This document shows, piece after piece, positions 17,515 to 28,077 of a DNA stretch of 32,958 nt (positions are counted from its first letter, which is position 1; every line of letters starts with the position of its first letter). The stretch comes from a virus (lineage: Duplodnaviria > Heunggongvirae > Uroviricota > Caudoviricetes): positions 1 through 32,958 of the IMG/VR virus record IMGVR_UViG_646862326_000003; one strand, 5' to 3'. A program made the position numbers and the translations under genes. The notes under the pieces were generated by a model. That model worked only from the letters and a program-made list of their open reading frames with translations, did not search any database and was not told where the DNA came from.

Positions 17515-17927
17515 TGATTGTGCTGGTTGTGTTGTTATCACTGGCGGTGGCTGGTCTGTTTATGGTGAAACACAAAAATGCCAGCCTGCGCGCCTCGCTG
17601 GACAGGGCGAACAACGTCGCCAGCGGGCAGCAGACGACCATCACCATGCTGAAAAATCAGCTTCATGTTGCCCTCACCAGAGCAGACAAAAACGAGCTGG
17701 CGCAGGTGGTACTGCGTCAGGAACTGGAGAACGCCGCGAAGCGTGAAGCACAGCGCGAGAAAACCATCACGAGGTTACTTAATGAAAACGAAGATTTTCG
17801 CCGCTGGTACGGCGCTGACCTGCCTGATGCTGTGCGCCGGTTGCACCAGCGCCCCGCCTGCACTGACGCCAGTGATTGTCCACAACGCCTGCCCGAAAGT
17901 GAGTCTTTGCCCGATGCCGGGCAGTGA
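17502..17927 (+). CDS. lysB: LysB, Rz-like spanin (141 aa)
   Basis: N-terminal transmembrane anchor (MIVLVVLLSLAVAGLFMV) followed by a coiled-coil-like region; contains the nested lysC frame. Confidence 0.7.
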   Translation: MSRLMIVLVVLLSLAVAGLFMVKHKNASLRASLDRANNVASGQQTTITMLKNQLHVALTRADKNELAQVVLRQELENAAKREAQREKTITRLLNENEDFRRWYGADLPDAVRRLHQRPACTDASDCPQRLPESESLPDAGQ

Positions 17928-21439: not shown

Positions 21440-24181
21440 ATGAGCACGAAATTTAAAACCGTTATCACTACTGCCGGAGCCGCAAAGCTGGCAGCCGCCA
21501 CTGTCCCCGGCGGGAAAAAAGTAAACCTGTCTGCAATGGCCGTGGGTGACGGTAATGGCAAATTGCCGGTGCCGGATGCCGGTCAGACGAAACTGGTGCA
21601 TGAGGTCTGGCGTCACGCTCTGAATAAAGTCAGCGTGGATAACAAGAATAAAAACTATATCGTGGCTGAACTGGTTGTACCGCCAGAAGTGGGCGGCTTC
21701 TGGATGCGTGAACTTGGTCTGTATGACGATGCCGGAACACTGATTGCGGTATCCAACATGGCAGAAAGCTATAAGCCAGAACTGGCTGAAGGCTCCGGAC
21801 GTGCGCAGACCTGCCGCATGGTTATTATTCTCAGCAACGTGGCGTCCGTTGAGCTGAGTATTGATGCCAGCACGGTGATGGCGACGCAGGATTACGTCGA
21901 TGACAAAATCGCAGAGCATGAGCAGTCCCGCCGCCATCCTGACGCCACGCTGACAGAAAAAGGTTTTACTCAGTTAAGCAGTGCAACAAACAGCACCAGT
22001 GAAAAGCTGGCGGCAACGCCAAAAGCGGTCAAGGCAGCAAATGACAACGCAAATTCACGTCTGGCGAAAAATCAGAACGGTGCAGATATCCAGGATAAAT
22101 CAGCTTTTCTGGACAATATTGGCGTTACCAGCCTGACGTTTATGAAACACAATGGAATGATTCCAACCACTGACAATCTTGACTCCTATGGCCCAGAAGA
22201 AAAATATCTTGGAACGTGGTCATGTCCGTCACAATCCACTGCAAAACCAGAGTCTGGTTACCCTGAAGATAAAGGCAATGGGGTTCTGGAAGTATTCAAT
22301 GCTGGTCGCTTTCACTGCACACAACGCTACACCACCCGAACCGGTAATATTTACATTCGGATGCTTGATGCAGAATGGAACCCAGCCAGTCCAACATGGA
22401 GTGCATGGAGAGTTATTACAAGCGGGACTCGACCATTAAGCACGTCAATTGACCTGAATTCTTTAGGTGGCGCGGAACACCTGGGAATATGGCGCAATAG
22501 CAGTACATCAATAGCCTCATTTGAACGTCATTTCCCGGAGGACGGGAGCTTTGGTCAGGGTATTCTGGAAGTCTTTGAAGGCGGTCTGTATGGGAGAATG
22601 CAACGTTACACCACCCGTAGTGGGACTATGTACATTCGCGGACTGACTGCCTCATGGGATGCAGAGAATCCACAATGGGAGGACTGGATTGCTGTTGGGT
22701 ATCAGTCCACGGGATGGACTTATTCAGGGGATCTTGATGACCTTTTAAAGCCTGGTATTTATAGCGTCACGAAACAGGCCACAAACGCACCAGTCACCGA
22801 CTCTAAAGATCTTGCTGTTGGCTCAATAGTTGAAGTGAAAAAACGTTGTGATATTGAATCGTATATCCAGACATATACGACAGTTTCTGCAACGGATGCC
22901 TATAAAAACCGGACATTTCAACGAACTCGTGCCAGCGGTGAAGCTGACTGGGGGGAATGGGCGGAAGTTTACAACTCAAAATCATTACTCACTAAATTAG
23001 GTGTCGGCGGTGTTACCGACAGGTTATCCAGTCTGGACTGGCAGACCTACGACTTTGTGCCGGGCAGCATGATAACTGTCAGACTCTCCGATATGACCAA
23101 TATCCCCGATGGGATGGAATGGGGCGTCATTGATACTAACCTGATAAATATCACTGTTGGCCCCAGTGAAGGTGGAGGTGTCGCCCGTTCAATGCAGGTA
23201 TGGCGCAGCACCTCAAACAAAACCAACTATCGTTTTTTTACAGTCCGCTTATATGGCAATCCTGGGGAGCGTAGCTTCAATATTCGTCGGCTACCAATTA
23301 TCGACGAAGCCCAGACATGGGAGGCAAAACAGACATTCAGTGCAGGCCTCTCTGGTGAACTGTCCGGCAATGCGGCGACAGCAACAAAGCTGAAAACAGC
23401 CCGTAAAATTAATAACGTTTCGTTTGATGGAACATCAGATATTAACCTGACGCCGAAAAATATTGGTGCATTTGCTTCAGGAAAAACAGGAGACACCGTT
23501 GCGAATGATAAAGCCGTTGGATGGAACTGGAGTAGCGGAGCCTATAACGCAACTACTGGTGGGGCATCAACGTTAATTCTTCATTTTAATATCGGTGAAG
23601 GAAGTTGTCCCGCAGCCCAGTTCCGCGTTAATTATAAGAACGGCGGTATTTTTTATCGTTCTGCTCGTGATGGTTACGGATTCGAGGCTGACTGGTCTGA
23701 GTTTTATACCACAACGCGAAAACCTACAGCGGGAGATGTCGGTGCACTGTCGTTATCTGGTGGTCAATTGAATGGTGCACTGGGCATCGGAACATCCAGT
23801 GCTCTTGGCGGTAATTCGATTGTTTTGGGTGATAATGACACGGGCTTTAAACAAAATGGTGATGGTAATCTGGATGTTTATGCTAATAGCGTCCATGTTA
23901 TGCGCTTTGTCTCCGGAAGCATTCAAAGTAATAAAACCATAAATATTACGGGGCGTGTTAATCCTTCGGATTACGGTAACTTTGATTCCCGCTATGTGAG
24001 AGATGTCAGACTTGGCACTCGTGTTGTTCAGACCATGCAGAAAGGGGTGATGTATGAGAAAGCAGGGCACGTAATTACAGGGCTTGGTATTGTCGGTGAA
24101 GTCGATGGTGATGACCCCGCAGTATTCAGACCAATACAAAAATACATCAATGGCACATGGTATAACGTTGCACAGGTGTAA
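21440..24181 (+). CDS. H: Tail fibre protein gpH, expanded variant (913 aa)
   Basis: P2-like N-terminus (MSTKFKTVITTAGAAKLAAA) and typical fibre C-terminus, with a longer middle region containing internal tandem repeats. Confidence 0.88.
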   Translation: MSTKFKTVITTAGAAKLAAATVPGGKKVNLSAMAVGDGNGKLPVPDAGQTKLVHEVWRHALNKVSVDNKNKNYIVAELVVPPEVGGFWMRELGLYDDAGTLIAVSNMAESYKPELAEGSGRAQTCRMVIILSNVASVELSIDASTVMATQDYVDDKIAEHEQSRRHPDATLTEKGFTQLSSATNSTSEKLAATPKAVKAANDNANSRLAKNQNGADIQDKSAFLDNIGVTSLTFMKHNGMIPTTDNLDSYGPEEKYLGTWSCPSQSTAKPESGYPEDKGNGVLEVFNAGRFHCTQRYTTRTGNIYIRMLDAEWNPASPTWSAWRVITSGTRPLSTSIDLNSLGGAEHLGIWRNSSTSIASFERHFPEDGSFGQGILEVFEGGLYGRMQRYTTRSGTMYIRGLTASWDAENPQWEDWIAVGYQSTGWTYSGDLDDLLKPGIYSVTKQATNAPVTDSKDLAVGSIVEVKKRCDIESYIQTYTTVSATDAYKNRTFQRTRASGEADWGEWAEVYNSKSLLTKLGVGGVTDRLSSLDWQTYDFVPGSMITVRLSDMTNIPDGMEWGVIDTNLINITVGPSEGGGVARSMQVWRSTSNKTNYRFFTVRLYGNPGERSFNIRRLPIIDEAQTWEAKQTFSAGLSGELSGNAATATKLKTARKINNVSFDGTSDINLTPKNIGAFASGKTGDTVANDKAVGWNWSSGAYNATTGGASTLILHFNIGEGSCPAAQFRVNYKNGGIFYRSARDGYGFEADWSEFYTTTRKPTAGDVGALSLSGGQLNGALGIGTSSALGGNSIVLGDNDTGFKQNGDGNLDVYANSVHVMRFVSGSIQSNKTINITGRVNPSDYGNFDSRYVRDVRLGTRVVQTMQKGVMYEKAGHVITGLGIVGEVDGDDPAVFRPIQKYINGTWYNVAQV

Positions 24182-24184
24182 TTT

Positions 24185-24712
24185 ATGCAGCATTTAAAAA
24201 ATATTACTGCGGGTAATCCAAAAACTGTTGCCCAATATCAACTGACAAAAAATTTTGATGTTATCTGGTTATGGTCCGAAGAGGGAAAAAACTGGTATGA
24301 GGAAGTAAGTAATTTTCAGGAAGACACGATAAAGATTGTTTACGACGAGAATAATATAATTGTCGGCATCACCAGAGATGCTTCAACGCTTAACCCTGAA
24401 GGTTTTAGCGTTGTCGAGGTTCCTGATATTACCGCCAACCGACGTGCTGATGACTCAGGTAAATGGATGTTTAAGGATGGTGCTGTGATTAAGCGGATTT
24501 ATACGGCAGACGAACAGCTGCAACTGGCGGAATTACAGAAGTCAGCTTTGCTTTCCGAAGCTGAAACTATCATTCAGCCACTGGAACGCTCTGTCAGACT
24601 GAATATGGCAACAGATGAGGAGCGTAGCCGACTGGAAGCATGGGAACGCTACAGTGTTCTGGTCAGCCGTGTGGATCCTGCAAATCCTGAATGGCCGGAA
24701 ATGCCGCAATAA
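24185..24712 (+). CDS. G: Tail fibre assembly chaperone gpG (175 aa)
   Basis: [40 protein letters not shown] matches P2 G as recalled; immediately follows H. Confidence 0.88.
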
Positions 24713-25074
24713 GTTGTATGATCTCTGGAGTGAGCTAACGTATCTATAGCACAGAGTAAAGCCTAATCTGACAGTCTGCTCTGTGCTAGGAGCGGACTGA
24801 CCTGCTCCCCGATGATTAATACACAGCTATGCTAGTAATGTCCGTAGATCGCTGTGTGTTGCATCCATCGGTTGAACTCACAGTCCAAACCAGACTGTCA
24901 GCTTTGATTAGATTCTACCTACTCAACCTGTCAGATAAGGTCTGAGCTAATACATCTAATATATGGCTTTGTGCAGGGGACGGCTATCGCGAACGTTAGG
25001 CCAGGTATCTGAATACGCACAGTTCACTTGGTTGTACTTCTTGCACTGATCTGCTATCCCGCACAGCTATTTAT

Positions 25075-25123
25075 AGGTAATCTTCAGTGTATAATCTGCC
25101 AACTTATGGAAGCTTGTACAACA
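25075..25123 (+). promoter_or_regulatory. Candidate promoter -10 (TATAAT, 25080-25085) and Shine-Dalgarno AGGAG for the 280-aa cargo gene
   Basis: Perfect TATAAT about 40 nt upstream of the ATG; AGGAG (25113-25117) 6 nt before the ATG at 25124. The -35 element is weak. Confidence 0.4.
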
Positions 25124-25133
25124 GGAGAAATAT

Positions 25134-25976
25134 ATGAAAAAAGAATTGTTTGGACGTTGCCCGTTTGATCTTGACGAAGATGTAAAAAAAATAGCCGCGA
25201 TAAATAAATATATCCATGCAAAATTTGAGGAGCATAAAAATAAAATAGACAACCTAAAGGGTGTGGAACAAAAATTGATGGTCTTACAGTACTTTAATGT
25301 ACTGAATGAACTTAGTAATCAGGCTATCTCTTCTTTGAATATAGGAGCCTTTTCAGCATCGGAAGTATTAGCTAGGGTTATAATAGAACAGGCTGCCAAT
25401 CAATTTTATATAGCAATAGATGATGGCGAAAATGCACAAGCATTACTCAAGGCTAGTAAGAAATTAGTTCATAGTAATGGAAAACGGTGGCTGGAGTGTT
25501 TAAAATCCAAAGGAATGACTAATCCAGCAGCAAATGAAAGGATTCGCATGGGAAAAGAACTAACTGATCTATTTAATAGATTGTGGCCAAATACACCTGA
25601 ATATCCAGGAACCAGAAAACTTTTTGAATTAATTGGCTGGGAAACACACTATCATGCCCATTACGTTCCCCTTTGTGATTCAATACATACATTCTCTGAT
25701 GATATGGTAAATATAGTATCTCTATATAATGCAATCCAAAGTGATGAAACTACTGCTATCGAATTCATTCTTGCAGTTAAACAAGAAAATAAACGGCTGG
25801 CAATTTATAATTTTGTAATTGCTACGGCCCTTCGGTGTGAGGCCTTAGTAAATGTATTTAACTCTTTAGGTTATCAGGATATTATAACAGAAATGACACC
25901 AACAATAGATACAGTCAACCAGACTATAATTCGATATGATGATTTTGATCATTCCAGAATTGATGATTGTCAATAA
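25134..25976 (+). CDS. AT-rich cargo gene at the Z/fun position between G and FI: soluble protein of unknown function (280 aa)
   Basis: Coordinates as given in the ORF track; by my base count the ATG falls about 10 nt upstream, so the exact start needs checking against the sequence. A 60-nt sample at 25201-25260 is 25% GC. No transmembrane segment or recognisable catalytic motif. Sits between G and FI where P2 carries Z/fun. Confidence 0.7.
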   Translation: MKKELFGRCPFDLDEDVKKIAAINKYIHAKFEEHKNKIDNLKGVEQKLMVLQYFNVLNELSNQAISSLNIGAFSASEVLARVIIEQAANQFYIAIDDGENAQALLKASKKLVHSNGKRWLECLKSKGMTNPAANERIRMGKELTDLFNRLWPNTPEYPGTRKLFELIGWETHYHAHYVPLCDSIHTFSDDMVNIVSLYNAIQSDETTAIEFILAVKQENKRLAIYNFVIATALRCEALVNVFNSLGYQDIITEMTPTIDTVNQTIIRYDDFDHSRIDDCQ

Positions 25977-26082
25977 TTAATTGACAGAATACGTACATGC
26001 GCAACAACTAGTGATAGTTGACTTATTTTCGCTCTTGAGAGACAACCATACTCAAATCTCCCACATTGCAGGAGATTTGAAT

Positions 26083-26190
26083 ATGAAAACATCACCGTGG
26101 AATAAAGACCGTACCATCGGTCAAAAAAGGCCACTTCAGATATCTCATATCTGGGGGATCCGGATTAGACTTGAGTTGGAAGGTAAATAA
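26083..26190 (+). CDS. Small basic ORF (35 aa) with hairpin-sequestered Shine-Dalgarno; may be a gene remnant
   Basis: ATG 26083 with GGAGA 7 nt upstream. The Shine-Dalgarno is the 3' arm of a perfect 10-bp inverted repeat (26052-26061 / 26071-26080). The track's 69-aa version starts at a TTG. Confidence 0.3.
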   Translation: MKTSPWNKDRTIGQKRPLQISHIWGIRIRLELEGK

Positions 26191-26222
26191 ATTGTCAGTC
26201 GGAAAATAAGTGAGTACAAATC

Positions 26223-26250
26223 AGGGCAGGTGAGCGAATTGCCCGCCTTT
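26223..26250 (+). terminator. Possible weak intrinsic terminator after the Z/fun-locus genes
   Basis: Short stem GGGCA (26223-26227) / TGCCC (26239-26243) followed by a T-rich tract (26247-26255). Weak. Confidence 0.3.
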
Positions 26251-26261
26251 TCTTTACCGGT

Positions 26262-26285
26262 GGTTGTGCTGTCGATTAGCCAACC
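26262..26285 (+). promoter_or_regulatory. Candidate Ogr-dependent late promoter element upstream of FI (dyad GGTTG-N14-CAACC)
   Basis: Partial dyad about 70-95 bp upstream of the FI ATG, the spacing expected for a P2 late-promoter activator site. Not verified. Confidence 0.35.
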
Positions 26286-26355
26286 GGGACAAATAGCCTG
26301 ACATCTCCGGCACAACTGAAAATACCACTCACCCATTAACCACGGAGTTAAACGG

Positions 26356-27546
26356 ATGAGCGACTATCATCATGGCGTGCAGGTGCTGGAGATTAACGAC
26401 GGCACCCGCGTCATTTCCACCGTATCCACCGCCATTGTCGGCATGGTCTGCACGGCCAGCGATGCGGATGCGGAAATCTTCCCCCTCAATAAACCGGTGC
26501 TGATCACCAATGTGCAGAGCGCAATTGCAAAGGCCGGTAAAAAAGGCACGCTGGCGGCATCGTTGCAGGCCATCGCTGACCAGTCAAAACCGGTCACCGT
26601 TGTCGTGCGCGTGGAAGACGGAACCGGCGACGACGAAGAAACGAAACTCGCGCAGACCGTTTCCAATATTATCGGCACCACTGACGAAAACGGTCAGTAC
26701 ACCGGACTGAAAGCCCTGCTGGCGGCGGAGTCGGTAACCGGTGTTAAACCGCGCATTCTCGGTGTGCCGGGACTGGACACCAAAGAGGTGGCTGTTGCAC
26801 TGGCATCAGTCTGTCAGAAGCTGCGCGCTTTCGGGTATATCAGCGCATGGGGCTGTAAAACCATTTCCGAGGTGAAAGCCTACCGTCAGAATTTCAGCCA
26901 GCGTGAGCTGATGGTCATCTGGCCGGATTTCCTCGCATGGGATACGGTCACCAGTACCACCGCCACCGCGTATGCTACCGCCCGTGCACTGGGCTTGCGC
27001 GCTAAAATCGACCAGGAGCAGGGCTGGCATAAAACACTGTCCAACGTCGGGGTGAACGGTGTTACCGGCATCAGCGCATCTGTATTCTGGGATTTGCAGG
27101 AGTCCGGCACTGATGCTGACCTGCTTAACGAGTCAGGCGTCACAACGCTGATTCGCCGTGATGGTTTCCGCTTCTGGGGTAACCGTACCTGCTCTGATGA
27201 CCCGCTGTTCCTCTTTGAAAACTACACCCGCACCGCGCAGGTGCTGGCCGACACGATGGCTGAGGCGCACATGTGGGCGGTGGACAAGCCCATCACCGCA
27301 ACGCTGATTCGCGACATCGTTGACGGCATCAATGCCAAATTCCGTGAGCTGAAAACAAACGGCTATATCGTGGATGCGACCTGCTGGTTCAGCGAAGAAT
27401 CCAACGATGCGGAAACCCTCAAGGCCGGAAAACTGTATATCGACTACGACTATACACCGGTGCCTCCTCTCGAAAACCTGACCCTGCGCCAGCGTATTAC
27501 CGATAAATACCTGGCAAATCTGGTCACCTCGGTTAACAGCAATTAA
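26356..27546 (+). CDS. FI: Contractile tail sheath protein gpFI (396 aa)
   Basis: MSDYHHGVQVLEINDGTRVISTVSTAIVGMVCTASDADAE matches P2 FI as recalled; size 396 aa. Confidence 0.92.
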   Translation: MSDYHHGVQVLEINDGTRVISTVSTAIVGMVCTASDADAEIFPLNKPVLITNVQSAIAKAGKKGTLAASLQAIADQSKPVTVVVRVEDGTGDDEETKLAQTVSNIIGTTDENGQYTGLKALLAAESVTGVKPRILGVPGLDTKEVAVALASVCQKLRAFGYISAWGCKTISEVKAYRQNFSQRELMVIWPDFLAWDTVTSTTATAYATARALGLRAKIDQEQGWHKTLSNVGVNGVTGISASVFWDLQESGTDADLLNESGVTTLIRRDGFRFWGNRTCSDDPLFLFENYTRTAQVLADTMAEAHMWAVDKPITATLIRDIVDGINAKFRELKTNGYIVDATCWFSEESNDAETLKAGKLYIDYDYTPVPPLENLTLRQRITDKYLANLVTSVNSN

Positions 27547-27558
27547 GGAGCCTGACCG

Positions 27559-28077
27559 ATGGCAATGCCGCGCAAACTCAAGTTAATGAACGTCTTTCTG
27601 AACGGCTACAGCTATCAGGGCGTTGCAAAGTCCGTCACGCTGCCAAAACTGACCCGTAAGCTCGAAAACTATCGCGGTGCGGGGATGAACGGCAGCGCAC
27701 CGGTAGACCTCGGCCTTGATGACGATGCGCTGTCAATGGAGTGGTCTCTCGGGGGCTTCCCGGATTCGGTTATCTGGGAGCTTTACGCCGCAACCGGTGT
27801 GGATGCCGTGCCGATTCGTTTTGCCGGTTCTTACCAGCGCGACGATACCGGCGAAACGGTGGCCGTCGAGGTGGTCATGCGTGGACGTCAGAAAGAAATC
27901 GACACCGGCGAGGGGAAACAGGGAGAAGACACCGAGTCGAAAATCTCCGTGGTCTGTACCTATTTCCGGCTGACGATGGACGGTAAGGAGTTGGTCGAAA
28001 TTGACACCATCAACATGATTGAGAAGGTGAACGGCGTCGACCGGCTGGAGCAACACCGCCGCAATATCGGCCTGTGA
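27559..28077 (+). CDS. FII: Tail tube protein gpFII (172 aa)
   Basis: Size and position match P2 FII; follows the sheath gene. Confidence 0.92.
   Translation: MAMPRKLKLMNVFLNGYSYQGVAKSVTLPKLTRKLENYRGAGMNGSAPVDLGLDDDALSMEWSLGGFPDSVIWELYAATGVDAVPIRFAGSYQRDDTGETVAVEVVMRGRQKEIDTGEGKQGEDTESKISVVCTYFRLTMDGKELVEIDTINMIEKVNGVDRLEQHRRNIGL

Follow-up and report, generated by a model that had tools for sequence, protein, structure and literature searches.

A 35-codon reading frame behind a start-site hairpin in a P2-like prophage: probably the stump of a small tyrosine recombinase gene with an idle translational brake

Why would a reading frame of only 35 codons keep its start site buried in a stable hairpin? 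The reading frame lies in a P2-like prophage, within a stretch of 32,958 nucleotides (the window, by which the whole stretch of analysed DNA is meant), and the queried stretch is 100% identical to E. coli MS7163. An earlier note took the arrangement for a translationally controlled small gene or else for a palindromic operator bound by a protein, with the reading frame as the 5' remnant of a lost gene. The reading that we prefer, with a probability of roughly 0.7, is that the reading frame is the 5' stump of a decayed recombinase gene, and that the hairpin is a conserved translational brake of the recombinase family that is idle here. The argument draws on the following features.

24759..24797, + strand: R-half of a palindromic repeat unit (...GTCTGCTCTGTGCTAGGAGCGGAC), from an nhmmer match to the unit HMM (model positions 32-70)
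25134..25976, + strand: cargo gene 1, encoding a 280-aa DUF5677 protein (Pfam PF18928, E 5e-10; RefSeq WP_000711882.1)
26017..26043, + strand: degenerate L-half (GTTGACTTATTTTCGCTCTTGAGAGAC) of the repeat unit enclosing the recombinase gene; family consensus (AAC)GTCCGCTTTTCGCTCATAAGGGAC
26047..26085, + strand: leader hairpin, with 5' arm 26047-26061, loop 26062-26070 and 3' arm 26071-26085
26083..26190, + strand: 35-codon reading frame with its TAA, codons 1-35 of a small tyrosine recombinase
26187..26188, no strand: deletion junction GGTAAA/TAAATTGTCAG (GGTAAA/TAAATTG, the slash marking the junction), from a two-block alignment to the S88 locus (L002)
26223..26258, + strand: GC-rich hairpin followed by a T-run, seen in the sequence and folded in the MFE and centroid structures
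26259..26355, + strand: pF late-promoter region of P2, with its activator binding site and transcription start, placed by way of the AF063097 annotation
L002 3491-3868, - strand: gene for a 125-aa hypothetical protein, gone from the window by deletion

The P2 Z/fun variable locus and its Z-region repeats are reportedly the subject of Nilsson et al. 2004 (Mol Biol Evol 21:1). In the window, tail fibre gene H and the gene of assembly protein G precede an AT-rich insert, after which come tail sheath FI and tube FII, and the R-half at 24759..24797 is where, in the P2 Z/fun hotspot between the tail genes G and FI, the foreign cargo has its left border. The window has a common backbone with P2, Wphi and P2-EC67 up to ...AGCGGAC (window 24797), and the four are unrelated beyond it (similarity between the window and P2-EC67 stops at 24796); the backbone of these four phages is common again from the right-hand L-half, and the cargo in between is unrelated. 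GenBank entry AJ512685 has inverted repeats, left and right, at the very positions of the half-repeats. The locus thus resembles the published P2 Z/fun variable locus in occupying the same slot between G and FI, with lysogenic-conversion or anti-phage cargo that varies among P2-like phages; that locus is described by Rousset et al., 2022 (PMC9122126), where the recombinase goes unmentioned. Beyond the published locus, the recombinase nested in a repeat, the hairpin and the repeat arrays outside P2 are observations of the present analysis. The DUF5677 cargo gene lies upstream of the stump in an AT-rich region (GC 0.34-0.37), and its product has no match in PADLOC or NCBIfam; the hotspot in which the gene lies is known for anti-phage genes, and in Buttiauxella, too, the gene accompanies the recombinase. 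Downstream, the hairpin at 26223-26258 is part of the P2 backbone and precedes the pF late promoter; it is kept in P2, S88, Wphi and EC67, and would, to judge from its terminator-like sequence, terminate read-through transcripts that cross the stump. The pF coordinates were carried over by alignment from AF063097 (activator site 17555-17583, transcription start 17626-17628, FI 17652), and the FI tail sheath gene follows at 26356-27546; the pF region is given for orientation only and lies outside the feature.

The perfect 10-bp inverted repeat pointed out earlier, TCAAATCTCC (26052-26061) and GGAGATTTGA (26071-26080) around a 9-nt loop, is indeed present and fully complementary. The stem extends to 15-nt arms that are 93% complementary, with one C.A mismatch (26051/26081), and compared with the perfect 15-bp consensus of the family a G of the 3' arm has become A in both the window and S88; the stem of the window reaches -16.3 kcal/mol, against -22.5 kcal/mol for the family consensus. 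That the Shine-Dalgarno sequence is locked in the stem is borne out, since GGAG(A) occupies 26071-26075, and the ATG at 26083-26085 is buried as well. When the RNA is folded, the stem comes out as both the MFE and the centroid structure whether the context is 81 nt (-17.5 kcal/mol, z -2.97, with 1 of 200 shuffles equally stable), 51 nt (z -6.6) or a read-through stretch of 284 nt. By count alone the repeat is only mildly unusual: there are two perfect 10-bp inverted repeats with 3-20-nt loops in the 32,958 nucleotides, against a mean of 0.57 in dinucleotide shuffles. The only other such repeat in the window lies at 4678-4702 (GCACCGGTAA-ggcgt-TTACCGGTGC). The case against chance is nevertheless strong, as the same hairpin is conserved at homologous loci. 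An Rfam scan of 24700-26400 at E<=1 gave no match.

The reading frame itself, on the + strand, has 35 codons, as proposed, and its boundaries are corrected here to 26083-26190, with the ATG at 26083-26085; it coincides with the 3' portion of a 69-aa reading frame that the mechanical listing starts at 25981. Its peptide is 100% identical to residues 1-35 of a 194-aa protein of S88 (WP_001514314.1), with syntenic flanks and with its N-terminus in line in the family alignment, and a homology search, the check that the earlier note had suggested, returns matches only to the N-terminus of a tyrosine recombinase of about 200 aa, an outcome that the note had named as speaking against its small gene. 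In the intact protein PF00589 covers residues 35-184 and the first catalytic Arg lies near residue 51, whereas the reading frame of the window ends at residue 35, so that no catalytic domain is left and the product does not qualify as a functional tyrosine recombinase; the 35-aa peptide has no Pfam match and is basic and hydrophilic, with no membrane segment. The cause of the truncation is seen in the alignment to S88, in which window 23292-26187 corresponds to L002 93-2988 (98.9% identity) and window 26188-27860 to L002 4035-5703 (95.7%). Compared with S88-type prophages 1046 bp are absent, comprising the recombinase gene from codon 36, an opposite-strand gene of 125 aa and the right-hand L-half repeat, and from 26188 onward the window is P2 backbone, 96.8% identical to P2. 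The junction yields a TAA straight after codon 35, and it used no microhomology, both copies of TAAA being kept. By its homology and its same genomic position, the reading frame qualifies as a pseudogene derived from a tyrosine recombinase (PF00589), and PGAP already annotates the region as an integrase pseudogene, 'incomplete, missing C-terminus'. The two-block alignment, the N-terminal identity and this PGAP call together speak for the remnant of a lost gene that had been offered as the alternative, and the translationally controlled small gene finds no support, as the peptide is a recombinase N-terminus and the reading frame stops at a deletion junction. The deleted form occurs in 2 of the 25 best-matching E. 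coli records listed (MS7163 and AST215), the other 23 carrying the extra kilobase. MS7163 also has a second P2-like prophage (L116, chromosome 2213321-2219976) with an intact S88-type locus consisting of the DUF5677 gene, the 194-aa recombinase gene and the 125-aa gene, such that a potentially active copy of the recombinase coexists with the stump.

What was lost can be read from the relatives. S88 and most genomes with the same cargo have an intact 194-aa tyrosine-type recombinase at this site, followed by the opposite-strand 125-aa gene, and the intact gene sits at the same position in S88 and at least 23 other E. coli genomes among those listed. The family is very large, with no fewer than 7,988 matching proteins, each of about 200 aa and 72-95% identical over the full length; it ranges over Enterobacterales, Proteus/Providencia, Idiomarina, Colwellia and Alteromonas, and was found in 844 of 5,426 complete E. 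coli genomes and on 19 viral contigs. The intact protein has the PF00589 catalytic domain with the motifs R...HxxR...H...Y. Like the FimB/FimE-type invertases it has about 200 aa, carries PF00589 and lacks a core-binding domain, and unlike these and other PF00589 members the copy in the window is left without the whole domain. Since its matches to NCBIfam models for Xer, invertases and integron integrases are weak and far below the family cut-offs (the best scores 46 against a cut-off of 220), the recombinase stands outside all named NCBIfam subfamilies. A sequence search of the PDB with the recombinase returned no relative, PADLOC and NCBIfam assign neither the recombinase nor its 125-aa neighbour to a specific family, and the latter has no family in Pfam either. 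An intact unit measures about 0.72 kb: the left half-repeat is followed by a leader of 62 nt and the gene, and these by a small GC hairpin and the right half-repeat. The small hairpin, GGGCTGC-AACA-GCAGCCC with no T-run, is conserved between the recombinase stop codon and the R-half (e.g. L022 ~4610-4630).

Decay of the recombinase gene is common elsewhere, as about 20 of 80 species-level loci fail to read through to the full length of about 200 aa, mainly on account of premature stops. Even the S88 recombinase ends in IEGLF where the family has DALEISESIEV, the last ~11 codons having been lost and the 3' end replaced, and by this differing C-terminus the S88 copy is itself truncated at codon 189, where a second segment starts. 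Matches to E. coli that seemed in BLAST to consist of the hairpin only, and hence to be solitary hairpins, proved to be a reversed, internally deleted recombinase unit. This unit, in E. coli ECONIH6 (L115 2300-2560), has kept both half-repeats and the hairpin, and shares its island with a P4-type integrase and SLATT/SMODS genes, a defence-gene neighbourhood. In the window, since the hairpin guards a fragment of 35 residues that has no catalytic residues, hairpin and reading frame are both relics.

The hairpin is by no means peculiar to the stump. When 71 distinct leaders, ranging from Enterobacterales to Alteromonas, are folded, the four Shine-Dalgarno bases are all paired in the MFE structure of 66 and the AUG in that of 68, with a mean dG of -17.9 kcal/mol and a median z of -6.7, and the same stem is found in 18 of 18 viral-contig loci that have enough upstream sequence. 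The family consensus is the perfect 15-bp stem CATACTCAAATCTCC / GGAGATTTGAGTATG, and among 28 diverse leaders 87.7% of cells are paired, compared with 30-44% for slid partners. In these 28 leaders both sides have changed at four of the pairs (15 cells), and the covariation score was reached by none of 500 shuffles, a control that related sequences without structure could also exceed. Compensatory changes turn ATCTCC/GGAGAT into AACTCC/GGAGTT (L078) or GTCTCC/GGAGAC (L082), and ACTCAAAT/ATTTGAGT into AATTAAAT/ATTTAATT (L086). The loop varies in sequence among clades at a constant length of 9-10 nt, and the stem spans SD to AUG in every lineage despite differing SD-AUG spacing and sequence. Counted by pair type, the leaders hold 22 G.U/U.G cells and 18 A.C/C.A cells. 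The conserved block starts about 62 nt upstream of the ATG, and the sequence further upstream is unrelated between loci; a crude consensus scan of the leader in the window and in three divergent members found no sigma70-like promoter. In these folding models the leaders thus pair both SD and AUG, as an SD-sequestering lock should, and their conservation with compensatory changes is what such a lock predicts, as palindromic DNA would too. A locus from a Leclercia MAG (L049, gene start at 4001) carries the 9-nt loop, ~40 nt ahead of the gene, in inverted form, with TGCAATGTG for CACATTGCA and the arms unaltered, which is a signature of template switching or inversion at a palindrome.

Given that the leader is conserved and has no recognisable promoter, the gene would be transcribed by read-through, from whatever precedes the element. 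In such a transcript, an arm complementary to the Shine-Dalgarno sequence and the start codon would pair with both, in a stem of 15 bp closed by a loop of 9-10 nt, and the hairpin would bar 30S subunits from the initiation region, allowing only trace amounts of recombinase to be made. Action at the level of RNA and repression of translation are what we infer, whereas the homology, the deletion, and the conservation and covariation of the stem are directly apparent from the alignments. A translational role of the stem would explain why the register from SD to AUG is kept through changes of spacing and sequence; a role as operator does not require such a register. In the window, the 1046-bp deletion after codon 35 made the stop and would have left the lock behind as a fossil. 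Counting against the lock, a perfect 15-bp stem of -22.5 kcal/mol would, by its predicted stability, block translation almost fully, and we found no mechanism for its relief.

Stems that sequester the Shine-Dalgarno sequence in the transposase mRNAs of IS10 and IS50 keep the enzyme scarce despite transcription from outside. By analogy, the leader is best read as an IS200-like translational lock on the recombinase. In IS200 a stable stem-loop in the 5'UTR of tnpA sequesters the SD and blocks binding of 30S subunits, thereby limiting the expression of a mobile-DNA enzyme (PMC4513863), and a single-stranded C/A-rich stretch, GACAACC, just 5' of the stem recalls the C/A-rich tract of IS200. A similar lock is reported for the transposase mRNA of ISPpu9 (PMC8450116). 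Unlike in IS200 and IS10, the enzyme is a tyrosine recombinase rather than a HUH or DDE transposase, and the stem also buries the AUG; unlike in IS200-type locks, we found no antisense RNA or terminator partner here, nor any Rfam match. An RNA thermometer of the ROSE or fourU kind, for which a weak stem with mismatches that melts between 30 and 42 C would be expected, was considered and rejected: the stem is too stable (-22.5 kcal/mol for the perfect 15 bp of the family, -16.3 kcal/mol for the window) and has no Rfam match. An arrangement in the style of IS10, in which a weak or activator-dependent promoter would lie inside the 5' arm such that the hairpin blocks read-through transcripts only, is conceivable but unsupported, as the crude scan found no promoter inside the conserved leader, be it in the window or in the three divergent loci. 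The pseudogene status of the locus being already annotated, what is added here is another SD-sequestering leader stem on the gene of a mobile-DNA enzyme.

It is conceivable, though in our judgement unlikely, that the palindrome instead acts as DNA to which a dimeric protein binds, either as an autoregulatory operator or as a site, accessory or core, for the recombinase itself, and that its overlap with the SD is incidental. Two inverted arms of 10-15 bp around a spacer that varies in sequence but keeps to 9-10 bp do recall recombinase or repressor sites, both arms change jointly as co-evolving half-sites would, the wobble statistics given above (22 versus 18 cells) confer no advantage on RNA, and the inverted 9-nt spacer of L049 is an event at the level of DNA. 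An inverted spacer is, however, a known result of template switching at any hairpin. The arms are also unlike the half-repeats of the unit (GTCCGCT.../...AGCGGAC) that mark the recombination breakpoints, neither the window nor the S88 locus holds a second copy of an arm beyond chance that could serve as a recombination partner site, and the gene-less repeat units are devoid of the palindrome. In every lineage, moreover, the stem runs exactly from SD to AUG although its sequence and length vary, and the operator is less well supported than a lock at the level of RNA.

Two further readings fare worse. It is very unlikely that it serves the upstream DUF5677 mRNA as a 3' stabiliser or a transcription attenuator, even if it lies 71 nt past the DUF5677 stop codon, is stable in a read-through transcript and is flagged as terminator-like in its minus-strand version; on the + strand no U-tract follows it, a proper terminator-like hairpin with a T-run sits at 26223-26258, and elsewhere the hairpin follows unrelated genes at variable distance while keeping a fixed register with the recombinase start. 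Least probable of all is that the 35 codons are a true, translationally controlled gene for a toxin-like or regulatory peptide. The ATG does follow the GGAGA SD by 7 nt, the frame is intact and ends in a stop codon, and small genes with locked SDs exist, type I toxins among them. However, the peptide is the N-terminus of a recombinase whose stop was made by a deletion junction, the form is shared by only two of the 25 E. coli records listed as best matches, the product is basic and hydrophilic without a membrane segment or a Pfam match, and the hairpin is older than the truncation. A type I toxin, or any bona fide small protein gene, was rejected in view of the deletion-made reading frame, the character of the peptide and the lack of an Rfam RNA in 24700-26400. 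The stump of a recombinase gene behind an idle translational lock thus stays the preferred reading.

The surroundings of the recombinase gene raise the possibility of a wider system. The gene lies between two half-repeats, an L-half, (AAC)GTCCGCTTTTCGCTCA..., before the leader and an R-half, ...TGTGCCAGAAGCGGAC(GTT), after the small GC hairpin, and the sequence outside these half-repeats is unrelated between loci. An L-half and an R-half joined by ~18 nt, with no gene, form a double-palindrome unit of ~70 bp, several of which occur per locus; the unit consensus is aaAcGTCCGCTccTCGCTCAcAGCgGAC-~18 nt-GTCCGCTttGTGCCAgaAGCGGACgTtg, and one unit per locus encloses the recombinase gene. Half-repeats or units are located at 24759-24797 and 26017-26043 in the window, at 1560-1598 and 3980-4022 in L002, and in large number in L006-L095. 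An HMM built from 44 units gave 135 matches, of which those on the minus strand are, except for one or two units, weak mirror images of plus-strand units at the same coordinates, and the units are therefore co-oriented with the recombinase; a random insertion of the repeats in the manner of MITEs is disfavoured by this co-orientation. The median segment between units is 1.3 kb long, and the segments hold 54 genes on the + and 59 on the - strand. Loci that share one flank part exactly at the end of a unit (e.g. L013 versus L016 and L021), and in Buttiauxella the same DUF5677 cassette and recombinase (96.6% identity) stand in a non-P2 array, the similarity starting within the R-half. Other settings include a tmRNA-linked island of Providencia, ICE-like contexts near traF/H/G, ars and mer, and a lambdoid prophage. 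A second module with an outer inverted pair (TGACCTGCTCCCC / GGGGAGCAGGTCA) lies outside the unit ends, its motif separated from the unit by an AT-rich stretch of ~29 nt; it is found at 24798-24842 in the window and ~27-29 nt outside the unit ends in L006, L011, L012, L022, L040, L065 and others, and in some loci its GGAGAG...ATG suggests a ribosome-binding site for the next gene.

This layout invites comparison with integrons, in which a tyrosine recombinase likewise accompanies an array. As in integrons, co-oriented, imperfect palindromes of ~70 bp, each made of two 'simple sites' (box, spacer, inverted box), stand between gene-sized segments, and loci that are otherwise identical have their breakpoints exactly where repeats end. 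Unlike in integrons, the boxes are GTCCGCT/AGCGGAC with ~10-nt spacers rather than RYYYAAC/GTTRRRY, the genes point in either orientation, and the recombinase gene is within a repeat rather than beside attI. A canonical integron was rejected, as the ~200-aa protein scores 17.8-17.9 bits on integron integrase models with cut-offs of 265 and 435; so was an identity of the units with attC, since in their consensus (aaAcGTCCGCTccTCGCTCAcAGCgGAC...GTCCGCTttGTGCCAgaAGCGGACgTtg) only the flanking AAC...GTT recalls attC. A tentative proposal, which we consider somewhat more doubtful than not, is that the repeats constitute a cassette-exchange system distinct from integrons, with a ~200-aa recombinase nested in a repeat, co-oriented gene-less repeats and the hairpin as a lock. 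In such a system the gene-less repeats may partition variable regions into cassettes of 1-3 genes, and the system may span the P2 Z/fun hotspot, a lambdoid prophage, hotspots of SXT/R391-like ICEs and genomic islands, from Enterobacterales to Alteromonas. A keyword search of the literature, the scope of which stopped short of the 2004 Z-region paper and a 2006 follow-up, found no description of a recombinase in a repeat, and the novelty of such arrays is uncertain.

As a pseudogene relic the stump has no bearing on the biology of the prophage. Its value is that it points to a conserved, covarying lock over SD and AUG on a very widespread small recombinase, one that lies at the breakpoints of variable cargo in hotspots of phages and ICEs. 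A recombinase, defined repeats and a brake on expression would together make the exchange of anti-phage and conversion genes at such hotspots testable. If the proposed exchange system is true, recombination at repeat ends, beyond homologous recombination in the flanks alone, would swap the defence and conversion genes of hotspots, and the stump in the window would be a spent copy of the cassette-exchange engine.
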